From the IMG/VR virus record IMGVR_UViG_3300037755_000476: a stretch of 64,000 nt of DNA; one strand, written 5' to 3'. Source of the DNA: a virus. Shown in pieces: positions 985-13,021 of the stretch. Under the pieces are notes generated by a model. It searched no databases. It was not told the DNA's origin and saw nothing but the letters and a program-made list of their open reading frames with translations. Within the stretch, counting starts at the first letter, position 1. Every line of letters starts with the position of its first letter. The position numbers and the translations under genes are program-made.

Positions 985-1020
985 TTTGGTTTGTATTATA
1001 ATTTTACTTATATTTGTACC
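985..1020 (+). promoter_or_regulatory. Bacteroidota sigmaA promoter for tRNA block 1 (36-bp element identical to 5001-5036)
   Basis: TTTG 985-988, 20-nt spacer, TATATTTG 1009-1016; exact copy at 5001-5036. Confidence 0.85.
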
Positions 1021-1046
1021 TGAACGATTAAAAAGAAACATTTTCA

Positions 1047-1127
1047 ATGTACTCAACAGTCATCATAGCGACAGTAATCAGAACCGGAGGTAAGGATAAA
1101 CCCTCGGGGAGGATTTTTATGCTGTAA
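1047..1127 (+). CDS. Leader peptide 1 (MYSTVIIATVIRTGGKDKPSGRIFML), putative attenuator
   Basis: 26-aa ORF between promoter and terminator; codons ACA, GTA, ATC, ATA, AGA, GGA, GAT, ATG match block 1 tRNAs. Confidence 0.8.
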   Translation: MYSTVIIATVIRTGGKDKPSGRIFML

Positions 1128-1153
1128 TGTCGATAGTACATTAAATTACACAT

Positions 1154-1186
1154 AAACCTTCTCCCTAAAAAGAGAGGGTTTTTTAT
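1154..1186 (+). terminator. Intrinsic terminator/attenuator 1
   Basis: Stem aaaccttctc/gagagggttt followed by a T run. Confidence 0.85.
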
Positions 1187-1276
1187 TGGCCTGTTAGTCT
1201 AGCTGACGAAAACTTGCCTAATAATAAGCCTTCCAACTAATAATCGCTATTATAAGCAGATTTAAGAGTACAATAT

Positions 1277-1450
1277 ATGAGCAGAACGTACAGAAAAAGT
1301 AGAAACGGCTTAAAATTTAGAGAAGGAAGGTATGTCGAAGGAGTTTTTTATAAGTGCCGGTGTGAATATTGTACTGGAATAGATAAGAAGATTCTTGAGG
1401 ATAAAATCCTTGACAAGGAAATGAAACAGGAGTGTAGCTTAATTGGTTAA
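1277..1450 (+). CDS. Small basic protein with CxCxxC (MSRTYRK..., 57 aa)
   Basis: Manually translated ORF; 3' end overlaps tRNA-Ile. Confidence 0.5.
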   Translation: MSRTYRKSRNGLKFREGRYVEGVFYKCRCEYCTGIDKKILEDKILDKEMKQECSLIG

Positions 1451-1501
1451 AGTACTCAGCTGATACCTGAGTGAGTGCAAGTTCGAATCTTGCCACTCCT
1501 A
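1428..1501 (+). tRNA. tRNA-Ile(GAU)
   Basis: Cloverleaf; anticodon arm ctcag-ctGATac-ctgag; TTCGAAT T-loop. Confidence 0.92.
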
Positions 1502-1507
1502 CATAAT

Positions 1508-1586
1508 GCAGAATTCGCATAGTCCGGTCGATTGCGCCTACCTTCCGAGCAGGATATCATCGTGGGTTCAAATCCCACATTCTGCT
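1508..1586 (+). tRNA. tRNA-Gly(UCC)
   Basis: Acceptor gcagaat/attctgc; loop ctTCCga; U73. Confidence 0.88.
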
Positions 1587-1599
1587 CTAATTAAAACAC

Positions 1600-1673
1600 T
1601 GCGGGGTGGACTGGAGAGGCTCCAGCTCAGTCTCATAAGCTGAATGACGTGGGTTCGATTCCCACTCCCGCAA
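1600..1673 (+). tRNA. tRNA with CAU anticodon (elongator Met or Ile2)
   Basis: tcagt-ctCATaa-gctga; lacks the three G-C pairs typical of initiator tRNA. Confidence 0.85.
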
Positions 1674-1690
1674 CTAACAAAACATTAAAT

Positions 1691-2053
1691 ATGAGTGAAA
1701 TAGAAGAAGAGTTAAGAGAATGTAAAACACACGGCCTTGTTTTATATAAAAAATATAGCGAAAGCGAAAATAAAAACGAGTATTCTTTCCGTTGTATGAA
1801 ATGTAGGTCTGAGTATTTAAAGAAAAAATATCAAGAGAGAAAGAAAAGAGCAATTGACTATAAAGGAGGAAAATGTTGTAAATGCGGATATAATAAATGC
1901 GACGCCGCTTTAGAGTTTCATCACTTAGACCCCTTTTCTAAAGACATAACGCCCTCAAAAACTTTAAATAGAAGTTGGGACAACTGTAAAAAAGAGTTAG
2001 ATAAATGTATATTAGTTTGCTCTAATTGTCACAGGGAAATACATAATAGATAG
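1691..2053 (+). CDS. HNH endonuclease with Zn fingers inside tRNA block 1
   Basis: CxxC pairs, LEFHH, CxNCHxEIH; ATG at 1691 (the longer ORF call overlaps a tRNA). Confidence 0.88.
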   Translation: MSEIEEELRECKTHGLVLYKKYSESENKNEYSFRCMKCRSEYLKKKYQERKKRAIDYKGGKCCKCGYNKCDAALEFHHLDPFSKDITPSKTLNRSWDNCKKELDKCILVCSNCHREIHNR

Positions 2054-2118
2054 TGTAGCTTAAAGGTAAAGTGCTTGTCTGTCACACAAGAGAACGGGGG
2101 TCAGTACCCCTACTAGCT
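2049..2118 (+). tRNA. tRNA-Asp(GUC), degenerate
   Basis: cttgt-ctGTCac-acaag; aberrant T-loop (gtcagta), acceptor mismatch; overlaps the HNH stop codon. Confidence 0.65.
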
Positions 2119-2163
2119 GCGAGTTTTTTGGAAGTGCTCTGAACTATATCAAAACTTCCGCAT

Positions 2164-2237
2164 GCTTCTCTGGCTGAATAGGAAATGGCACCTCACTTGT
2201 AATGAGGAGGATACGGGTTCGATTCCTGTGGGGAGCT
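2164..2237 (+). tRNA. tRNA-Thr(UGU)
   Basis: cctca-ctTGTaa-tgagg; TTCGATT T-loop. Confidence 0.92.
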
Positions 2238-2238
2238 C

Positions 2239-2343
2239 AACAGTACCTGAGGCACCTCTCTTTAAGAAGTGTCCCAGCTCAGGTCTTTTGTTTTAACAGT
2301 ACCCGAGCCACCTCTAGTCAGTATCTAAGTGCCCGGGTCTTTT
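2239..2343 (+). ncRNA. Two tandem copies of an unknown hairpin RNA motif (2239-2289, 2295-2343)
   Basis: Shared AACAGTACCYGAGSCACCTCT..AAGTG..GGTCTTTT with compensatory stem changes. Confidence 0.55.
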
Positions 2344-2399
2344 CCAAGGGAGTCAACTACGTGCGTTTTAAAACACAAGCTTAAAGGGCTCCCTTTTTT

Positions 2400-2472
2400 G
2401 CCCCTTTCGTCTAGCGGCTAAGGCTCTTGTTTTACATGCAAGCAATCGTAGGTTCGAGTCCTACAGGGGGTA
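2400..2472 (+). tRNA. tRNA-Val(UAC), irregular anticodon loop
   Basis: gcccctt/agggggt acceptor; cttg-ttTACatg-caag (8-nt loop); TTCGAGT T-loop. Confidence 0.75.
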
Positions 2473-2481
2473 CTAAAATAT

Positions 2482-2561
2482 GCAGGGGTAGCCACAGCAA
2501 TCTTCTAAATTGCTAAGTGTAATCGGAGCTGAAAATGTGGGTTCGAATCCCCCTCCCTGTT
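2482..2561 (+). tRNA. D-armless tRNA-Arg(UCU)-like RNA with long variable region
   Basis: gcagggg/tccctgt acceptor; only 7 nt before a 6-bp stem agcaat-ctTCTaa-attgct; 22-nt variable region; TTCGAAT T-loop. Confidence 0.65.
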
Positions 2562-2566
2562 CAAAT

Positions 2567-2636
2567 TGGGGTAAGCCTAGGTAGGTTAGCGGACCTTATA
2601 TGTCCGTGGGGACGGGTTCGATTCCCTCTACCCCAA
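2567..2636 (+). tRNA. tRNA-Ile(UAU)-like RNA with minimal D-arm
   Basis: tggggta/tacccca acceptor; cggac-ctTATat-gtccg; bulged T-stem. Confidence 0.6.
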
Positions 2637-2640
2637 CAAA

Positions 2641-2672
2641 TTTGGTAGTTACAAAAGAATTTCGTATCTTTG
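2641..2672 (+). promoter_or_regulatory. Bacteroidota promoter
   Basis: TTTG...TATCTTTG, 3 nt before ATG 2676. Confidence 0.75.
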
Positions 2673-2675
2673 ACC

Positions 2676-2960
2676 ATGACGGATTTTATACCTAAAAAGA
2701 CCCAACAGGAGATACACGAAATCAACTTCCAGAACGCCGAGGAGCTGTTACTGTACCACAAGTACCTGTACTACGAGCTCTCCAAGCCGATGGTAACCGA
2801 CCAACACTTCGACCAGCTCGACCAATATGCAAGAAGACTTTCCCAGTACGTATGCCCCAAGCGCTTTCCACCGGAGGAATACGTACACGAGACAATGGTC
2901 GGCTTTGATAAAAATCACCGGTTGTGGCCGAAAGTGAAAGAGAGATTTGGAATAAAATAA
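2676..2960 (+). CDS. Stand-alone NAD-dependent DNA ligase domain Ia-like protein
   Basis: HKYLYYELSKPMVTDQHFDQL resembles the LigA Ia motif (H-YY...P-ISD-EYD-L); no ligase core follows. Confidence 0.65.
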   Translation: MTDFIPKKTQQEIHEINFQNAEELLLYHKYLYYELSKPMVTDQHFDQLDQYARRLSQYVCPKRFPPEEYVHETMVGFDKNHRLWPKVKERFGIK

Positions 2961-2976
2961 AAAAATTGTATAAAAG

Positions 2977-3007
2977 TTTGTAGGTATCAAAAAAAGTTGT
3001 ATATTAG
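2977..3007 (+). promoter_or_regulatory. Promoter for tRNA block 2
   Basis: TTTG 2977-2980, 19-nt spacer, TATATTAG (variant -7 box). Confidence 0.7.
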
Positions 3008-3011
3008 CAGC

Positions 3012-3101
3012 ATGAAAACATTAAGCACATATAATTCCTTTTGGTATTCGAATTGCTCCGGCAATGTTGAAGGGGATTCCTATGTCTACAAACTCATATA
3101 A
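3012..3101 (+). CDS. Leader peptide 2 (MKTLSTYNSFWYSNCSGNVEGDSYVYKLI), putative attenuator
   Basis: 29-aa ORF; core NSFWYSNCS matches block 2 tRNAs (Ser x2, Asn, Trp, Phe, Cys). Confidence 0.82.
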   Translation: MKTLSTYNSFWYSNCSGNVEGDSYVYKLI

Positions 3102-3131
3102 CTATTTTCGTTTTTTGATTTTGATTCATTT

Positions 3132-3161
3132 AACCCTTCGTCTCCAAACGAGGGGTTTTTT
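3132..3161 (+). terminator. Intrinsic terminator/attenuator 2
   Basis: Stem aacccttcg/cgaggggtt plus T run. Confidence 0.88.
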
Positions 3162-3171
3162 GTTTTTATAC

Positions 3172-3255
3172 TGCAACGTAAAGCCAGTGGTTCTGGCAGA
3201 CTGTCTCTAAAACAGTTATTGTAAAAGGGGAGTGGTTCGATTCCGCACGGTGCAA
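3172..3255 (+). tRNA. Amber suppressor tRNA (anticodon CUA), type II-like
   Basis: actgt-ctCTAaa-acagt (anticodon 3207-3209); D-stem gccag/ctggc; long variable region; A73. Confidence 0.8.
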
Positions 3256-3259
3256 CAAT

Positions 3260-3344
3260 TAGTGGGTAGCGCAAAGGTTGCGAACGGGATTTGAACCCCC
3301 GGCTATCGGGTGACTGGTAAGGGTTCGATTCCTTTACCCACTAC
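3260..3344 (+). tRNA. tRNA-Ser(UGA)
   Basis: Loop ttTGAac; paired long variable arm; acceptor+T helix can be 13 bp. Confidence 0.75.
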
Positions 3345-3348
3345 AAAC

Positions 3349-3435
3349 AGAGGGGTGGCAGAGAGGCTTATTGCAGCAGGTTGCTAACTTGCCGAGGTAT
3401 AAACACTTCCGAGGGTTCAAATCCCTTCCCCTCTT
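3349..3435 (+). tRNA. tRNA-Ser(GCU)
   Basis: gcagg-ttGCTaa-cttgc; long variable arm. Confidence 0.92.
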
Positions 3436-3441
3436 CTAAAC

Positions 3442-3527
3442 GACTAGGTTGCCGTAGTGGCCGAACGGTCTGGGCTGTTAACCCAGTGGATAATATCCCA
3501 TCGTAGGTTCGAATCCTACCCTAGTCG
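3442..3527 (+). tRNA. tRNA-Asn(GUU) with long variable arm
   Basis: ctggg-ctGTTaa-cccag; variable arm tggataatatccca; G73. Confidence 0.88.
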
Positions 3528-3535
3528 CTTAAAAT

Positions 3536-3608
3536 GCTTCTCAGCACAATGGTGTGCAGCCGGTCTCCAAAACCGTGCAAGGGCAAGGTTCGATTCCTTG
3601 GGGTCGCG
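3536..3608 (+). tRNA. tRNA-Trp(CCA), mismatched acceptor stem
   Basis: cggt-ctCCAaa-accg; D-stem gcac/gtgc; T-arm intact. Confidence 0.75.
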
Positions 3609-3611
3609 CAG

Positions 3612-3719
3612 ATAAAAACAAGCTTATGCCGTGAAACGGTGTGATGGTCGCTGGATGAAAGCAACGCACTTAATGACCGTGCCCAAAATTGATAAAATTT
3701 CCAGATGCTTGTTTTTTAT
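3612..3719 (+). ncRNA. Unknown structured (possibly pseudoknotted) RNA between tRNA-Trp and tRNA-Phe
   Basis: Closing stem aaaaacaagc/gcttgttttt, GAAA-capped hairpin, ggtc/gacc, gcac/gtgc and ctgga/tccag pairings. Confidence 0.5.
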
Positions 3720-3793
3720 GGGGTTGTAGCTGAGGTGGTAATTAGCGCTGGGCTGAAAACTCAGAGACGGGGGTTCGAATCCCCCCTCCCCCA
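3720..3793 (+). tRNA. tRNA-Phe(GAA)
   Basis: ctggg-ctGAAaa-ctcag; two acceptor mismatches. Confidence 0.82.
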
Positions 3794-3847
3794 CTAAGAG
3801 TTGAAGGGGTATAAAAACAGTTCAACTCTTTTTCGTATATTTGTTAT

Positions 3848-4273
3848 ATGAAAATATGCACAACTTGTAATCAAAGTAAAACACTAGATAATTTTGATTT
3901 TAGAAATAAGGCTAAAAATAAAAGACGAGGCTCTTGTAAAAAGTGTCTTAAAGAGTATTACAGACTAAGGTATAAGAAAGTAGGTAAAGTAAAAGAACAA
4001 ATAAATGCGAGGGGTAAAAGGTGGAGAGAGTATTTATACAAGTTTGTAAATAGATATAAAAGATTGGTTGGGTGCTCTAAGTGTAAAGATAAGAGAGATT
4101 ATGTATTAGAATTTCATCACGTCAGGGATAAGAAAACAGAAATCTGTAGAGCTATATCTAGAGATTTCTCTATGTCTAACCTTAAAGAGGAGATGAGAAA
4201 GTGTGTAGTACTCTGCGCAAATTGCCACAAAGAGCTTCATTATCTAGAACGTTGCGGTACTCAAGAGGATTAG
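3848..4273 (+). CDS. HNH endonuclease with Zn fingers inside tRNA block 2
   Basis: CTTC/CKKC, LEFHH, LCANCHKELH; own TATATTTG promoter at 3836-3843. Confidence 0.88.
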   Translation: MKICTTCNQSKTLDNFDFRNKAKNKRRGSCKKCLKEYYRLRYKKVGKVKEQINARGKRWREYLYKFVNRYKRLVGCSKCKDKRDYVLEFHHVRDKKTEICRAISRDFSMSNLKEEMRKCVVLCANCHKELHYLERCGTQED

Positions 4274-4324
4274 GGGAACTGGCTACAAACTTGTTATTCG
4301 GAGGTTAAAGTCCTGTACGAAATT
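4251..4324 (+). pseudogene. Degenerate tRNA-Cys-like gene (loop ctACAaa)
   Basis: tactcaagagg D-region typical of Cys/Tyr tRNAs; weak acceptor and T stems; overlaps the HNH 3' end. Confidence 0.5.
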
Positions 4325-4395
4325 CTATAGCTTATGCCCCAATTCCATTTAAATTCTTTTTTGTACCTTTACAACTTAACATTAAAAATGTAACA

Positions 4396-4725
4396 ATGGC
4401 AAGAAGAACAACAAAAAACGGGCCGGGGGACAAGGACAAGAAAAAAAAATCCACCTCCAAAGCTAACGACACGATAAGCCCGTACTACGCAGCGGTAAAA
4501 TATGGAAGCTCTCTCGAAAAGAATGCGGCCAAGAAGTCCATGGCAGGATACTTCTCCGGCTCCCCTGCCAACAAAAGAGGAGAGTCCGAGAGCCAGCACA
4601 TGTCCAGAATGGCCAAAAAAGATACTATCCCCAGTGCCAGAAAAGCGAGGGGGGTATATCAGGCAGGTAACTTTGGTCCCAGCATCGGCAAAAAAGCATC
4701 CTCAACCGTAAAAAAGAAAAAGTAA
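4396..4725 (+). CDS. Lys-rich basic protein, unknown function
   Basis: 109-aa ORF with AT-rich upstream region. Confidence 0.65.
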   Translation: MARRTTKNGPGDKDKKKKSTSKANDTISPYYAAVKYGSSLEKNAAKKSMAGYFSGSPANKRGESESQHMSRMAKKDTIPSARKARGVYQAGNFGPSIGKKASSTVKKKK

Positions 4726-4726
4726 T

Positions 4727-4999
4727 ATGAAAAATCTATTCTTAGGACTTGCACTATTGATTTCGTCTATAGTGTTCTCACAGGAGCCCGTTCTGGACAG
4801 CATACAAGTTTTTAAACCTATGCCGGAGCCTGTACTGATAGCCACTATATACGAATACGAAACGTTCTTCGAGAAACTTACAGAAGTGTCCGACAGGACA
4901 GGTGCCAATGAGGTTATCTGCGTATTTTTCTACAAAGAGGATAAAGACTCTCCCCAAAAAACTCTGGTAAAAACTTTTATTAGAAAAAAACAACGATAA
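4727..4999 (+). CDS. Hypothetical exported protein
   Basis: N-terminal signal peptide MKNLFLGLALLISSIVFSQ. Confidence 0.65.
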   Translation: MKNLFLGLALLISSIVFSQEPVLDSIQVFKPMPEPVLIATIYEYETFFEKLTEVSDRTGANEVICVFFYKEDKDSPQKTLVKTFIRKKQR

Positions 5000-5000
5000 A

Positions 5001-5036
5001 TTTGGTTTGTATTATAATTTTACTTATATTTGTACC
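5001..5036 (+). promoter_or_regulatory. Promoter for tRNA block 3 (identical to 985-1020)
   Basis: TTTG...TATATTTG 5025-5032; exact 36-bp repeat. Confidence 0.85.
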
Positions 5037-5039
5037 ATC

Positions 5040-5117
5040 ATGAAAACAACACGATTTGTTGCGGTACGCAACTTACATACACAGCTACTAGAGCAACCGG
5101 AAATAATCGTCTGGTAG
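5040..5117 (+). CDS. Leader peptide 3 (MKTTRFVAVRNLHTQLLEQPEIIVW), putative attenuator
   Basis: 25-aa ORF; core RNLHTQLLEQPE matches block 3 tRNAs (Pro, Glu, Gln, His, Leu-UAG, Arg-ACG). Confidence 0.85.
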   Translation: MKTTRFVAVRNLHTQLLEQPEIIVW

Positions 5118-5159
5118 GGATAGGTATGGTGTGATGTAAGAAACTTATATTATCGTATT

Positions 5160-5194
5160 AAGCCTCCCCGGAAACGTGGGGGCTTTTTTATTTT
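5160..5194 (+). terminator. Intrinsic terminator/attenuator 3
   Basis: aagcctcc..gaaa..gggggctt plus T run, directly before tRNA-Pro. Confidence 0.88.
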
Positions 5195-5268
5195 AGGGGA
5201 GTGACAAAATTGGTGACGTGCCGGCCTTGGAAGCCGGAGATATGTAGGTTCGAGGCCTACCTCCCCTA
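5195..5268 (+). tRNA. tRNA-Pro(UGG)
   Basis: ccggc-ctTGGaa-gccgg. Confidence 0.9.
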
Positions 5269-5316
5269 CAAAGAGACGTTTGGCCGTTTAACTCTTTAAA
5301 AAACAATGGCCCTAAT

Positions 5317-5389
5317 GCTACCATCGTCTAAATGGTCAGGACACAAGACTTTCAATCTTGAAATCGGGTTTCGATTACCCGTGGTAGTA
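5317..5389 (+). tRNA. tRNA-Glu(UUC)
   Basis: caaga-ctTTCaa-tcttg. Confidence 0.92.
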
Positions 5390-5399
5390 CGAATATAAT

Positions 5400-5470
5400 T
5401 GGAGTATGATGTAGTGGTAACATGGTTGGTTTTGAGCCAACTCTCGGAGGTTCGACCCCTTCTGCTCCAA
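5400..5470 (+). tRNA. tRNA-Gln(UUG)
   Basis: gttgg-ttTTGag-ccaac; U1-A72 acceptor. Confidence 0.9.
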
Positions 5471-5477
5471 CTAACAT

Positions 5478-5551
5478 GGTGTCATTGTTGTAAACGGTGA
5501 GCATAGTAGGTTGTGACCTTGCAGGTCTCGGTTCGAATCCGAGGTGACACA
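5478..5551 (+). tRNA. tRNA-His(GUG)
   Basis: gtagg-ttGTGac-cttgc; G-1 encoded. Confidence 0.9.
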
Positions 5552-5558
5552 CATATTT

Positions 5559-5640
5559 ACCGGAGTGACGTAAAAGCGAATGGCAGAGTATCTTGGCTTA
5601 GACCCAAGGGTTTTTGTGGGTTCGAGTCCCACCTCCGGTA
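5559..5640 (+). tRNA. tRNA-Leu(UAG), expanded D-region and short variable loop
   Basis: cttgg-ctTAGac-ccaag; accggag/ctccggt acceptor. Confidence 0.82.
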
Positions 5641-5645
5641 CAAAT

Positions 5646-5716
5646 ACGCCCGTAGTTCAGCGGAAGAATACCAAGCTACGAACTTGGAGACGGGGTTTCG
5701 AATACTCCCGGGCGTT
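5646..5716 (+). tRNA. tRNA-Arg(ACG)
   Basis: ccaag-ctACGaa-cttgg. Confidence 0.92.
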
Positions 5717-5854
5717 CTATACCAATTTCGTACTATTGGGCGTCTTGAAAGAGAGGGCGTCCTTTATCTTTGAATCCTTCCTTCTGTACAGCCTCGCTAC
5801 CTTTTTATTGGGGTCGGAGGCCTTTTCCGATATTTTATGTTTTCTGTAGTTCAT
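5717..5854 (-). CDS. Small basic protein (MNYRKHKIS...KIKDALSFKTPNSTKLV, 45 aa), convergent on tRNA block 3
   Basis: Manual translation; stop codon abuts the tRNA-Arg 3' end. Confidence 0.5.
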   Translation of the reverse strand: MNYRKHKISEKASDPNKKVARLYRRKDSKIKDALSFKTPNSTKLV

Positions 5855-9370: not shown

Positions 9371-10225
9371 ATGGCACTAAAACAAAATGCACTGACCTAC
9401 TTACCGGCCATAAACATAGAAGCCCCTTCCGGTGATTCCGTGGCGATAGAGAGCCTTAAAGGCGCACTTTATAAAATTGCAGAGATGCAGAAGGATGAGG
9501 TTGCGGACGGGGCCTATACCAATGTAAAAGGGGCTTCCGCAGACCCGTTCAACAGCTCTTTATGGGATGTGACTATAGATACCGGAACCTACACACTGGC
9601 ATTCGTATCCGAGATAATTACACCCAATTCCGGACTATATAAAAATCCGGCCCTATCGGCCAGAAGGCCTTTGGATATTGAAATAGTTGCAAATGCAAAT
9701 GCCCACACCGTCAGGTCGGCCCTAGCTGCACTTAAGTTCGTGGACAAGTTGGAGGACATAGCAGCCGTTTCTGGATTCGCCTCTGGGACAGTTACACTGG
9801 CCACAGCTTTGGCCGACGACACTGTTACCATAAACGGATTGGTCTATACCGCAGTTACTGGGGCTAAGGCAGATAATACGGAATTTTCAATAGACGGTAC
9901 CGATACTGTGGATGCGGCCGATTTAGCCGACTCTATAAACAATGATGATAGAGAGGGTACTCTAGGGGACGTATCGGCAACCTCAGCACTTGGAGTGGTT
10001 ACAATCACTACTACCGTATCTGGCGAGGCCGGCAATGCCGTAACTTTGGCAGAAGATACCGGCGACACTACTATCTCCGTATCCGGGGCTACCCTTACAG
10101 GCGGAGGTGGCGACGCAGTATACACAGACGTAACGTTAAAGGGCTTCACTCCCTTCGAAACATTTGTATGGGACATCGAAAAGGCCGGGGACGTATACAC
10201 ACTGACCCCTACCGCAGATTCCTAA
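9371..10225 (+). CDS. Probable virion structural protein with an inserted T/G/A-rich beta domain
   Basis: Paralog of upstream gene; insert TVTINGLVYT...ATLTGGG resembles phage fibre/sheath-type domains. Confidence 0.6.
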   Translation: MALKQNALTYLPAINIEAPSGDSVAIESLKGALYKIAEMQKDEVADGAYTNVKGASADPFNSSLWDVTIDTGTYTLAFVSEIITPNSGLYKNPALSARRPLDIEIVANANAHTVRSALAALKFVDKLEDIAAVSGFASGTVTLATALADDTVTINGLVYTAVTGAKADNTEFSIDGTDTVDAADLADSINNDDREGTLGDVSATSALGVVTITTTVSGEAGNAVTLAEDTGDTTISVSGATLTGGGGDAVYTDVTLKGFTPFETFVWDIEKAGDVYTLTPTADS

Positions 10226-12391: not shown

Positions 12392-13021
12392 ATGAAGGTA
12401 AGGAATATAATACTCGACCCGGGCCATGGCGGGATAGATAGTTCCGGAAGATATACCACCGCTCCGGACAAAATGTTCAAGCACGATAATGGAGAGGTAG
12501 CCTACGAGGGAAAGATAAACAGGGAGATAAGTAAGCACTTGTACGACTTTTTAATAGATTGCAGTACTTGTAGGGTACTTTTTACCGTAAGACCGGAAGA
12601 CCCTAAGGACGTGCCTCTATACAAAAGGGTTTCTTTTTCTAACGACTACAACGAAAACGAGACTATTTACATATCTATACACTGCAACGCCTCCCCTAGC
12701 CACAACGCTACGGGGTTTGAGATATTTACTACAGAAGGAGAAACAGAGAGCGACTTCTTGGCAGAGGACATAGCGGATTCAGTTGAGGGACTATATAAAG
12801 AAATGAGCTTGAAGTTGAGGTACGACCTATCCGACGGGGACAAGGACAAAGAGGCCAGTTTTAAAGTAATAAGGGAAACAAACTGCCCTGCCGTACTTTT
12901 GGAGATATTATTTTTCGATAACTATTCCGACTTTTTAAAATTAAGAGACGTTAGTTTTCAAAAAAAGGTAGCCGAGAAAATAGGTCAGGGAGTAATAAAT
13001 TATATCGATGGAAGAAGTTAA
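12392..13021 (+). CDS. Endolysin, N-acetylmuramoyl-L-alanine amidase (Amidase_3)
   Basis: ILDPGHGG, EG..N, ISIHCNA, PAVLLE motifs. Confidence 0.92.
   Translation: MKVRNIILDPGHGGIDSSGRYTTAPDKMFKHDNGEVAYEGKINREISKHLYDFLIDCSTCRVLFTVRPEDPKDVPLYKRVSFSNDYNENETIYISIHCNASPSHNATGFEIFTTEGETESDFLAEDIADSVEGLYKEMSLKLRYDLSDGDKDKEASFKVIRETNCPAVLLEILFFDNYSDFLKLRDVSFQKKVAEKIGQGVINYIDGRS

Follow-up and report, generated by a model that had tools for sequence, protein, structure and literature searches.

Three leader modules precede the tRNA blocks

The stretch analysed here, a 64-kilobase (kb) window of the virus record IMGVR_UViG_3300037755_000476 from a marine phage, contains three blocks of tRNA genes, each preceded by what appears to be a leader-peptide attenuator, with a short open reading frame (ORF) whose codons correspond to the tRNAs encoded behind it. 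Within positions 985-5716 the order of a Bacteroidota-type promoter, an ORF of 25-29 codons, an intrinsic terminator and a tRNA block occurs three times. An earlier reading of the sequence (the original prediction) had described these three units as codon-sensing attenuators gating the tRNA blocks, and all of them are in place as described. A scan of both strands of the window for the layout of promoter motif, ORF of 15-40 codons and terminator returned these three sites only. Searches with ARAGORN and Rfam placed 16-19 tRNA genes within the first 6 kb and none in the remainder of the window. The promoters, leader ORFs with their pairing elements, terminators and tRNA blocks of the three modules all lie on the plus strand.

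The first module begins with promoter P1 (985-1016), which shows the TTTG and TAnnTTTG boxes of the Bacteroidota type both by reading of the sequence and in a strict motif scan. It is followed by leader ORF 1 (1047-1127) of 26 codons, whose putative sensor codons, approximately codons 4-15, specify Thr, Val, Ile, Ala, Arg (AGA) and Gly. A G-rich predicted antiterminator strand (1105-1113, codons 20-23) is complementary to the 5' arm of terminator T1 (1154-1187), which consists of a hairpin at 1154-1181 with a stem of up to 10 base pairs and a subsequent T-run. tRNA block 1 (1428-2637) encodes Ile-GAU, Gly-UCC, Met-CAU, Asp-GUC, Thr-UGU, Val-UAC, Arg-UCU and Ile-UAU, with an HNH gene (1691-2053) inserted between Met-CAU and Asp-GUC.

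Promoter P2 (2977-3007) of the second module was recognized by reading of the sequence and is formed by TTTG, 19 nucleotides (nt) and TATATTAG. In leader ORF 2 (3012-3101, 29 codons) the putative sensor codons 5-16 specify Ser, Tyr, Asn, Phe, Trp and Cys, and the predicted antiterminator strand (3067-3075), which contains GAAGGG, has two possible partners, namely the 5' arm of terminator T2 and the Asn-Ser-Phe codons at 3033-3043. T2 (3132-3167) has its hairpin at 3132-3157, and the first tRNA begins 5 nt downstream of its T-run. Block 2 (3172-3794) comprises a Tyr-derived suppressor tRNA with a CUA anticodon, Ser-UGA, Ser-GCU, Asn-GUU, Trp-CCA, a structured spacer and Phe-GAA; tRNA-Trp (3536-3609) was called by ARAGORN only at a relaxed threshold.

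The third module starts from promoter P3 (5001-5032), found by the strict motif scan and identical to P1. Leader ORF 3 (5040-5117, 25 codons) carries putative sensor codons at positions 5 and 10-21 for Arg (CGN), Leu, His, Gln, Glu and Pro. It ends on a TAG stop codon, with a second in-frame TAG two codons later. A candidate antiterminator strand (5116-5126) covers the final two stop-codon bases and the sequence just downstream. Terminator T3 (5161-5189; hairpin 5161-5184 plus T-run) is followed, 6 nt beyond its T-run, by tRNA-Pro, the first gene of block 3 (5195-5717), which encodes Pro-UGG, Glu-UUC, Gln-UUG, His-GUG, Leu-UAG and Arg-ACG. A further terminator (5738-5770) is predicted to close the block.

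P1 and P3 are exact copies over 36 nt, and the promoters of the modules share the form TTTG, about 19 nt, TAnnTTTG. The -7 box of P2 lies only 5 nt from the ATG of leader 2, so spaced that the leader 2 mRNA is probably leaderless; the corresponding distance for P3 and leader 3 is 7 nt, and two of the three modules appear to produce leaderless mRNAs. In the related Cellulophaga phage phi38:1 all three leaders are preceded by a promoter of the P2 type. A sigma-70 promoter scan was uninformative for Bacteroidota promoters. The strict motif occurs in the region at P1, at P3 and at 2641-2672 before a protein gene, and nowhere else; in particular it is absent between the terminators and their tRNAs. 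Internal promoters had been named in the original prediction as an observation that would speak against it. The first tRNA begins 5-10 nt past the T-run (T2 and T3 in the window, T1 in relatives), which leaves no space for a separate tRNA promoter.

Leader codons match the downstream tRNAs in frame

The correspondence between leaders and blocks was evaluated on entire leaders minus the initiator Met, not on hand-picked cores, by shuffling residues among the three leaders. With the tRNAs detected in the window, 37 of the 77 residues belong to the leader's own block (shuffle p = 8e-5). When the fuller ancestral blocks described in the next section are used, a match as good as the observed one does not arise in 200,000 shuffles (p < 5e-6) in the window, in phi38:1, in the IMG/VR phage L005 or in Maribacter phage Panino. 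At the level of codons under strict wobble rules, 30 of 77 fall on the diagonal in frame 0 (p = 1.5e-4), and reading the same nucleotides in frame +1 or +2 abolishes the association (p = 0.91 and 0.88, respectively). Since only frame 0 is significant, the association is a property of the reading frame, as a ribosome-based sensor predicts and unlike an artefact of nucleotide composition. The permutation test that had been proposed as a check of the original prediction is therefore both significant and frame-specific.

Its counts of core residues represented in the own block (12/14, 8/9 and 10/12 for leaders 1 to 3) are correct as well, and the isoacceptor details were reproduced: leader 1 uses AGA/AGG for Arg where leader 3 uses CGA/CGC, CTA CTA precedes the block with tRNA-Leu(UAG), and ATA precedes tRNA-Ile(UAU). 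Within the cores, leader 1 encodes Arg by AGA and leader 3 by CGN. The match is concentrated in the front part of the leaders, the own-block fraction being 0.90, 0.71 and 0.68 for codons 2-15 of the three leader classes and 0.65, 0.43 and 0.22 for their tails.

The modules are conserved in Flavobacteriia phages

Related loci were found by tRNA similarity, by a tRNA-Pro pattern or by a neighbouring protein, and only one of them, the close relative L003, through a regulatory element, the promoter. A search with a virion protein gave three loci only, from two lineages, and a search of IMG/VR with a 15-mer of leader 2 gave mostly chance matches. All three modules are shared by phi38:1 and Calle_1 (Callevirus, Cellulophaga), L005/L079 from IMG/VR, the two TARA lineages L082 and L083/L084/L078, Maribacter phage Panino and the Cellulophaga phage phi4:1, and thus occur in at least four distinct groups of Flavobacteriia phages, in varied orders and on varied strands. 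In Panino, block 3 is followed by block 1, and block 2 is found on the opposite strand at a distance of about 40 kb; in phi4:1, a 146-kb myovirus, the order is 3, 1, 2.

Blocks that have been reordered or have switched strand keep their own leader. The leader rich in Leu, His, Gln, Glu, Pro and Arg always precedes the Pro...Arg block, the one rich in Thr, Ile, Ala, Gly, Lys, Asp and Val always precedes Ala...Val, and the one rich in Tyr, Asn, Ser, Phe, Trp and Cys always precedes Tyr...Phe. Composition is retained even among the most distant leader peptides, whose identity is only about 30-50%. Conservation in relatives had been named as a check of the original prediction, and leaders are kept as ORFs in every relative examined: they have 22-33 codons and start with ATG or GTG in all lineages. 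In the alignments of six leader 1 sequences (A1), seven leader 2 sequences (A2) and eight leader 3 sequences (A3), indels in the core are in frame, i.e. multiples of three, and a single change of start codon, from ATG to GTG, is seen.

The blocks of the relatives are fuller than those of the window. Block 1 opens with Ala-UGC and Lys-UUU, block 2 begins with Tyr-GUA and ends with Cys-GCA, and block 3 additionally contains Leu-UAA. The three ancestral blocks partition all twenty amino acids, with Arg split by codon family. The partition runs mostly by first codon base, with ANN and GNN in block 1, UNN, AAY and AGY in block 2, and CNN, GAR and UUR in block 3; as the first codon base corresponds to anticodon position 36, these are therefore also classes of position-37 modification.

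Comparison with the ancestral blocks accounts for the leader residues that the original prediction had left without a partner, because the tRNAs for Ala, Lys, Leu-UAA and Cys have been lost from the window, where remnants of them are left. The list that the original prediction gave for block 2 stands for the two Ser tRNAs, Asn, Trp and Phe; an intact tRNA-Cys, also listed there, is present as tRNA-Cys(GCA) in the relatives and in the window only as a remnant (about 4273-4345) beside an HNH gene (3848-4273). The acceptor ends of this remnant are kept and its interior is foreign. Tyr, noted as the exception in leader 2, is a real mismatch today, which is explained by the CUA tRNA at 3172-3256: it aligns with the phi38:1 tRNA-Tyr(GUA) at 76 matching positions, with G34 changed to C, and block 2 must therefore ancestrally have held tRNA-Tyr. 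The CUA tRNA itself is an amber suppressor resembling supF, and the corresponding position of L003 is occupied by a different tRNA-Tyr(GUA), a normal one.

An 87-kb phage (L077/G002) has a block of a different composition, Pro, Tyr, Gln, His, Arg-ACG, Ser and Ser, and the core of its leader has gained three Ser codons and one Tyr codon and lost Glu. The region before a second tRNA group of this phage, Ala-Asp-Asn...Trp-Thr, contains a terminator together with a Thr-, Trp-, Ala-, Asp- and Asn-rich frame, which was not counted as a leader as it is without a canonical start codon, and no leader was found for its third group (Ile-Phe-Val-Gly-Gly-Cys) behind an IS-type insertion. By-eye reading of the tRNA region of this phage revealed apparent genes for an RtcB-type RNA ligase and an IS605-type TnpB; these genes, the terminator and the frame are located in L077 1372-2600 and 1-540 and in L086 1160-1350.

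L003 carries two chimeric tRNAs, one at 9828-9913 with a CAU-anticodon 5' part and the 3' end of Arg-UCU, and one at about 12910-12990 with a His 5' part and the 3' end of Arg-ACG; the tRNA gene losses of this phage apparently occurred via recombination between similar T-arms. A scan of bacterial genomes with the leader 1 pattern gave no match, hence nothing points to an origin from a host or a prophage.

Terminators and alternative pairings

Hairpins of -9 to -16 kcal/mol followed by runs of five to seven T are present downstream of 21/21 leaders. For each of these leaders we determined which upstream segment best complements the 5' arm of its terminator and assessed significance by shuffling. 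In most of them the complement lies at codons 16-23, directly past the sensor codons; in window leader 3, which has six inserted codons, it is found immediately past the stop codon. Duplex energies range from -8 to -14 kcal/mol, similar to those of the terminators, and individual shuffle p-values are mostly 0.002-0.07. In the window the predicted antiterminator duplex is -9.1 kcal/mol for leader 1, -11.0 kcal/mol for leader 2 (p = 0.008) and -9.3 kcal/mol for leader 3, where p = 0.4 for this sequence alone and 0.006-0.06 for the homologous position in seven other lineages. The antiterminator strand and the terminator arm co-vary, as in the leader 2 class with GAAGGG/CCCTTC, GAGAGG/CCTCTT and GAAGAGG/CCTCTTC, and the peptide encoded by the G-rich stretch varies while the G-rich RNA itself is kept.

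We then modelled the ribosome in the folding as a mask of 28 nt. For leader 1 of the window and of phi38:1, the probability of the terminator is about 0-0.1 with the A site at codons 2-15 or 2-16 and about 1 beyond, whereas in leader 1 of L005 it falls only around codons 10-13. A long conserved hairpin (1065-1125) pairs the sensor codons of leader 1 with the 3' end of the ORF and is backed by two compensatory pairs (RNAalifold on the six sequences of A1); it would correspond to the 1:2 anti-antiterminator element that is expected of such a switch.

Because equilibrium folding showed a switch for leader 1 only, leaders 2 and 3 were judged by truncated, co-transcriptional folds. In RNA truncated ahead of the 3' arm, the terminator 5' arm is sequestered more with the ribosome on the sensor than with the ribosome on the G-rich strand in 9/9 leaders. 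For leaders 2 and 3, the truncated RNA without a ribosome already favours the antiterminator by default. Direct pairing of the sensor with the antiterminator strand was found in the leader 2 class, in which the Asn-Ser-Phe(-Trp) codons, codons 8-11, pair with the G-rich strand (p = 0.008-0.05 in three lineages). The same duplex does not reach significance in the classes of leaders 1 and 3.

Transcripts of the modules in phi38:1 infections

Phage phi38:1 relies on the polymerase of its host for transcription (PMC5335546). In RNA libraries of phi38:1 infections, 78-89% of the sequence words of the leader and tRNA region are present; these data are assembled contigs only, which show neither ends nor levels and may include DNA carry-over. 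RNA contigs bridge T1 and T2, and the listed contigs break at T3, with a contig of about 100 nt over leader 3 at a depth of about 2400 as compared to about 280 downstream, i.e. about 8-fold. The break and the drop in depth at T3 are weakly suggestive of partial termination. In three of four runs, the summed contig depths over the spacer between tRNA-Ile and tRNA-Gly of phi38:1 (L008 3245-3353) are 4-20 times those of the neighbouring bins, and this spacer RNA may be a stable small RNA.

A probable codon-sensing switch for tRNA operons

The permutation statistics, the conservation and the co-varying pairing support the core of the original prediction, and we consider it about 75% probable that the modules are working ribosome-mediated, codon-sensing attenuators of the trp/his type which control tRNA operons. 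Its foundations, namely the anatomy of the modules, the frame-specific codon match, the conservation of the modules and the co-varying alternative pairings, are all observed. The host RNA polymerase would start at the Bacteroidota-type promoter and a ribosome would translate the short leader. As long as the aminoacyl-tRNAs for the sensor codons (approximately codons 4-15) are plentiful, the ribosome would move on to cover the G-rich strand, the terminator would form and transcription would stop before the tRNAs. Slow decoding would stall the ribosome on the sensor and leave the G-rich strand free to pair with the 5' arm of the terminator, resulting in readthrough into a block that encodes tRNAs for the very codons sensed. 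Since the three leaders jointly span nearly all amino acids, each set of tRNAs could be replenished on demand, and the outcome would be a negative feedback on the combined pool of charged host and phage tRNAs.

To our knowledge, a regulation of phage tRNA arrays has not been described. If the proposed mechanism is true, the phage gauges the tRNA supply of the infected cell by codon class and replenishes it on demand, which would support the view that phage tRNAs compensate for a tRNA shortage arising in infection. The modules are compact and portable, and might also find use in Bacteroidota as natural sensors of how fast particular codons are translated. Anticodon-nuclease attack as the trigger is speculative; decay of host tRNAs, limitation of amino acids or feedback by the module's own output would fit equally well. 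It is tempting to go further and regard the modules as a self-contained, horizontally mobile decoding homeostat, in which three leader-sensed tRNA operons divide all amino acids among themselves, mostly by first codon base, and the phage detects the loss of a tRNA class, by decay of host tRNAs following shut-off or by an anticodon nuclease, and replaces that class only. We put this extension forward tentatively and would give it rather less than an even chance.

Several observations weigh against the attenuator interpretation. The leaders of the window hold codons for Ala, Lys, Tyr and Cys as well as TTA codons without matching phage tRNAs, and under strict wobble three TCC Ser codons of leader 2 are not read by the Ser tRNAs of the block. 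L003 has lost the tRNAs for Asp, Thr, Val, Arg-UCU, Leu-UAG and Arg-ACG, with leaders that differ from those of the window by one base each. The G002 leader contains six Leu codons, and a tRNA-Leu was not found in this record, which is about 53% complete. The expectation of the original prediction that leader codons co-vary with tRNA content is thus borne out in the core of the L077/G002 leader and fails in the window, in L003 and for the Leu codons of G002, where codons for lost tRNAs are kept. From this persistence it follows that the leaders track block content only over longer times, and as they retain codons that the blocks do not serve, some of the sensor codons must report on host tRNAs. 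Moreover, the p-values obtained across phages are not independent since the lineages share ancestry.

Further difficulties concern the switch itself. For three of the 21 leaders (window leader 3 and Panino leaders 1 and 2) shuffling shows no significance of the antiterminator, the full-length equilibrium fold of leaders 2 and 3 is always the terminator, with no switch under the ribosome mask, and the duplex test yielded no convincing 1:2 element for leader 3. The predicted switch of leaders 2 and 3 thus relies on a kinetic, co-transcriptional argument. A ribosome at the stop codon would leave the antiterminator strand uncovered in several leaders; on leader 3, a terminating ribosome would cover the candidate strand. 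Translation of the leaders, variable readthrough, the direction of the switch and its physiological trigger are what we infer from the observed features.

It is conceivable that the leaders are translated and the terminators conditional but that the output or the logic is another one, such as tuning of the protein genes in the operons (HNH, Nlig-Ia, virion protein), or a fixed translation-dependent termination that acts as a timer of global translation capacity. The protein genes inside and behind the blocks would agree with this, as would the default antiterminator fold of the truncated leaders 2 and 3 and the lack of an evident 1:2 element in leader 3. A sensor of global capacity, however, needs no block-specific codons, yet leader composition is specific for block and frame and has been kept despite divergence, and tRNAs are the sole content common to all modules in all lineages. 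We therefore regard such an arrangement as improbable.

Somewhat more improbable still is that the terminators are plainly leaky, with short ORFs that are fortuitous or encode small proteins, tRNAs made by constitutive readthrough and a codon match inherited from one chance event. The modules of all lineages do have a common ancestry, so that the match is not fully independent among them, parts of the core are conserved as sequence, and the contigs that bridge T1 and T2 indicate RNA across these terminators. Such a reading does not account for three leaders matching three blocks within a single genome (p = 8e-5 to < 5e-6), for core substitutions and indels that stay within the amino-acid set of the block while the tails drift, for a G002 leader that has changed along with its block, or for an antiterminator complement that co-varies with the terminator; a function of the peptide would likewise leave the varying peptide tails and the kept G-rich RNA unexplained. 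Direct RNA sensing without a ribosome, by codon-like triplets that face tRNA anticodons in the manner of a T-box or act as a sponge or chaperone for the downstream tRNAs, is made formally possible by the codon-anticodon match and is nevertheless very improbable, as there is no match to the T-box or another known RNA family, the triplets share the phase of a start and a stop codon that are both conserved, their indels are in frame, ten or more consecutive specifiers are without precedent, and no conserved element for binding the tRNA acceptor end is seen.

Comparison with known attenuators

The modules share four features with leader-peptide attenuators: a conserved upstream short ORF, enrichment of cognate codons, an intrinsic terminator and a predicted antiterminator that excludes the terminator and is so placed that stalling on the regulatory codons would favour it. 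In an Rfam cmscan of the window and four relatives, with E values admitted up to 1-5, only tRNAs were found apart from one Phe_leader match with E = 1.1, far below threshold; accordingly, none of the modules belongs to the covariance models Trp_leader, His_leader, Leu_leader, Thr_leader, Phe_leader or Bacteroid-trp, and no T-box was matched. The modules would thus work like attenuators and stand outside every curated Rfam leader family.

With the trpL, hisL, leuL, thrL, pheL and ilvGMEDA attenuators of amino-acid operons they have in common the short ORF with regulatory codons, the terminator and an antiterminator that uses the terminator 5' arm and would be favoured when a ribosome stalls on those codons; a candidate 1:2 hairpin is predicted in leaders 1 and 2. 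The ilv and thr leaders sense several amino acids each. The differences lie in the output, which here consists of tRNA genes, so that the sensed product, charged tRNA, stems directly from the regulated genes; in breadth, as amino-acid operon attenuators sense one to three amino acids whereas the phage leaders would sense 6-10 each and together essentially the whole code; and in their setting, which is phage-borne with two of three mRNAs apparently leaderless. If confirmed, they would extend textbook trp/his attenuation to RNA genes whose products are the very molecules sensed, with multi-amino-acid sensors of unusual breadth.

A component of translation controlled by the decoding of its cognate codons is also found among synthetase genes. 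The pheST operon of E. coli, with pheM, is governed by a leader-peptide attenuator. In bacilli, leaders with His codons precede hisS paralogues (PMC2965389). In these cases a protein enzyme for a single amino acid is controlled, in contrast to the whole sets of tRNA genes seen here. T-box riboswitches resemble the modules in that their conditional antitermination reflects the condition of one particular tRNA, and the genes under its control serve this tRNA. However, they bind the uncharged tRNA directly through one specifier codon and the T-box sequence, without a ribosome, and these elements are absent here. Two further systems are of interest for the host group and for the leaderless mRNAs. 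Bacteroid-trp is a leader-peptide attenuator candidate of Bacteroidota. This motif is listed in Rfam as RF01692 (PMC2864571), and in mycobacteria leaderless short ORFs with poly-Cys act as codon-specific attenuators (bioRxiv 10.1101/834739). Both differ from the phage modules in regulating genes of cellular amino-acid metabolism and in sensing a single amino acid.

Full-text literature searches retrieved no description of leader-peptide control of tRNA genes, and the phi38:1 transcriptome paper (PMC5335546) makes no mention of it. The nearest precedents are the multivalent ilv and thr leaders together with the leader control of synthetase genes.

Passenger genes and other features of the region

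In addition to tRNAs, the same operons carry two genes for HNH endonucleases, one for a stand-alone Nlig-Ia domain and two small genes. The HNH genes (1691-2053 and 3848-4273) are of the homing-endonuclease type and lie within the tRNA blocks. The gene at 2676-2960 encodes a protein of 94 residues which comprises only the N-terminal NAD+-binding Ia domain of the NAD-dependent DNA ligase (Pfam PF22745, E = 8e-7). The entire block 1 module is bracketed by a direct repeat (888-915 and 2666-2692; about 26 nt), which spans the start of the Nlig-Ia gene as well as part of the promoter of this gene; the flanking position of the repeat suggests that the module was inserted or moved as a unit.

An ORF for a Cys-rich protein of 57 residues (1277-1450) lies between T1 and the first tRNA and overlaps the start of tRNA-Ile. 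It is conserved (L005, about 3358-3530) and matched no Pfam or PHROG family.

Two of the spacers between tRNA genes are structured. Between tRNA-Thr and tRNA-Val (2239-2399), two tandem hairpins of about 50 nt are followed by a long hairpin and a T-run directly before tRNA-Val; a hairpin with a T-run occurs at the same spot in phi38:1 (L001, about 4130-4175) and at the start of L083, and may be an internal terminator or a processing signal. Between tRNA-Trp and tRNA-Phe, a non-tRNA spacer of about 108 nt (3612-3719) is largely conserved in L003 (11520-11625).

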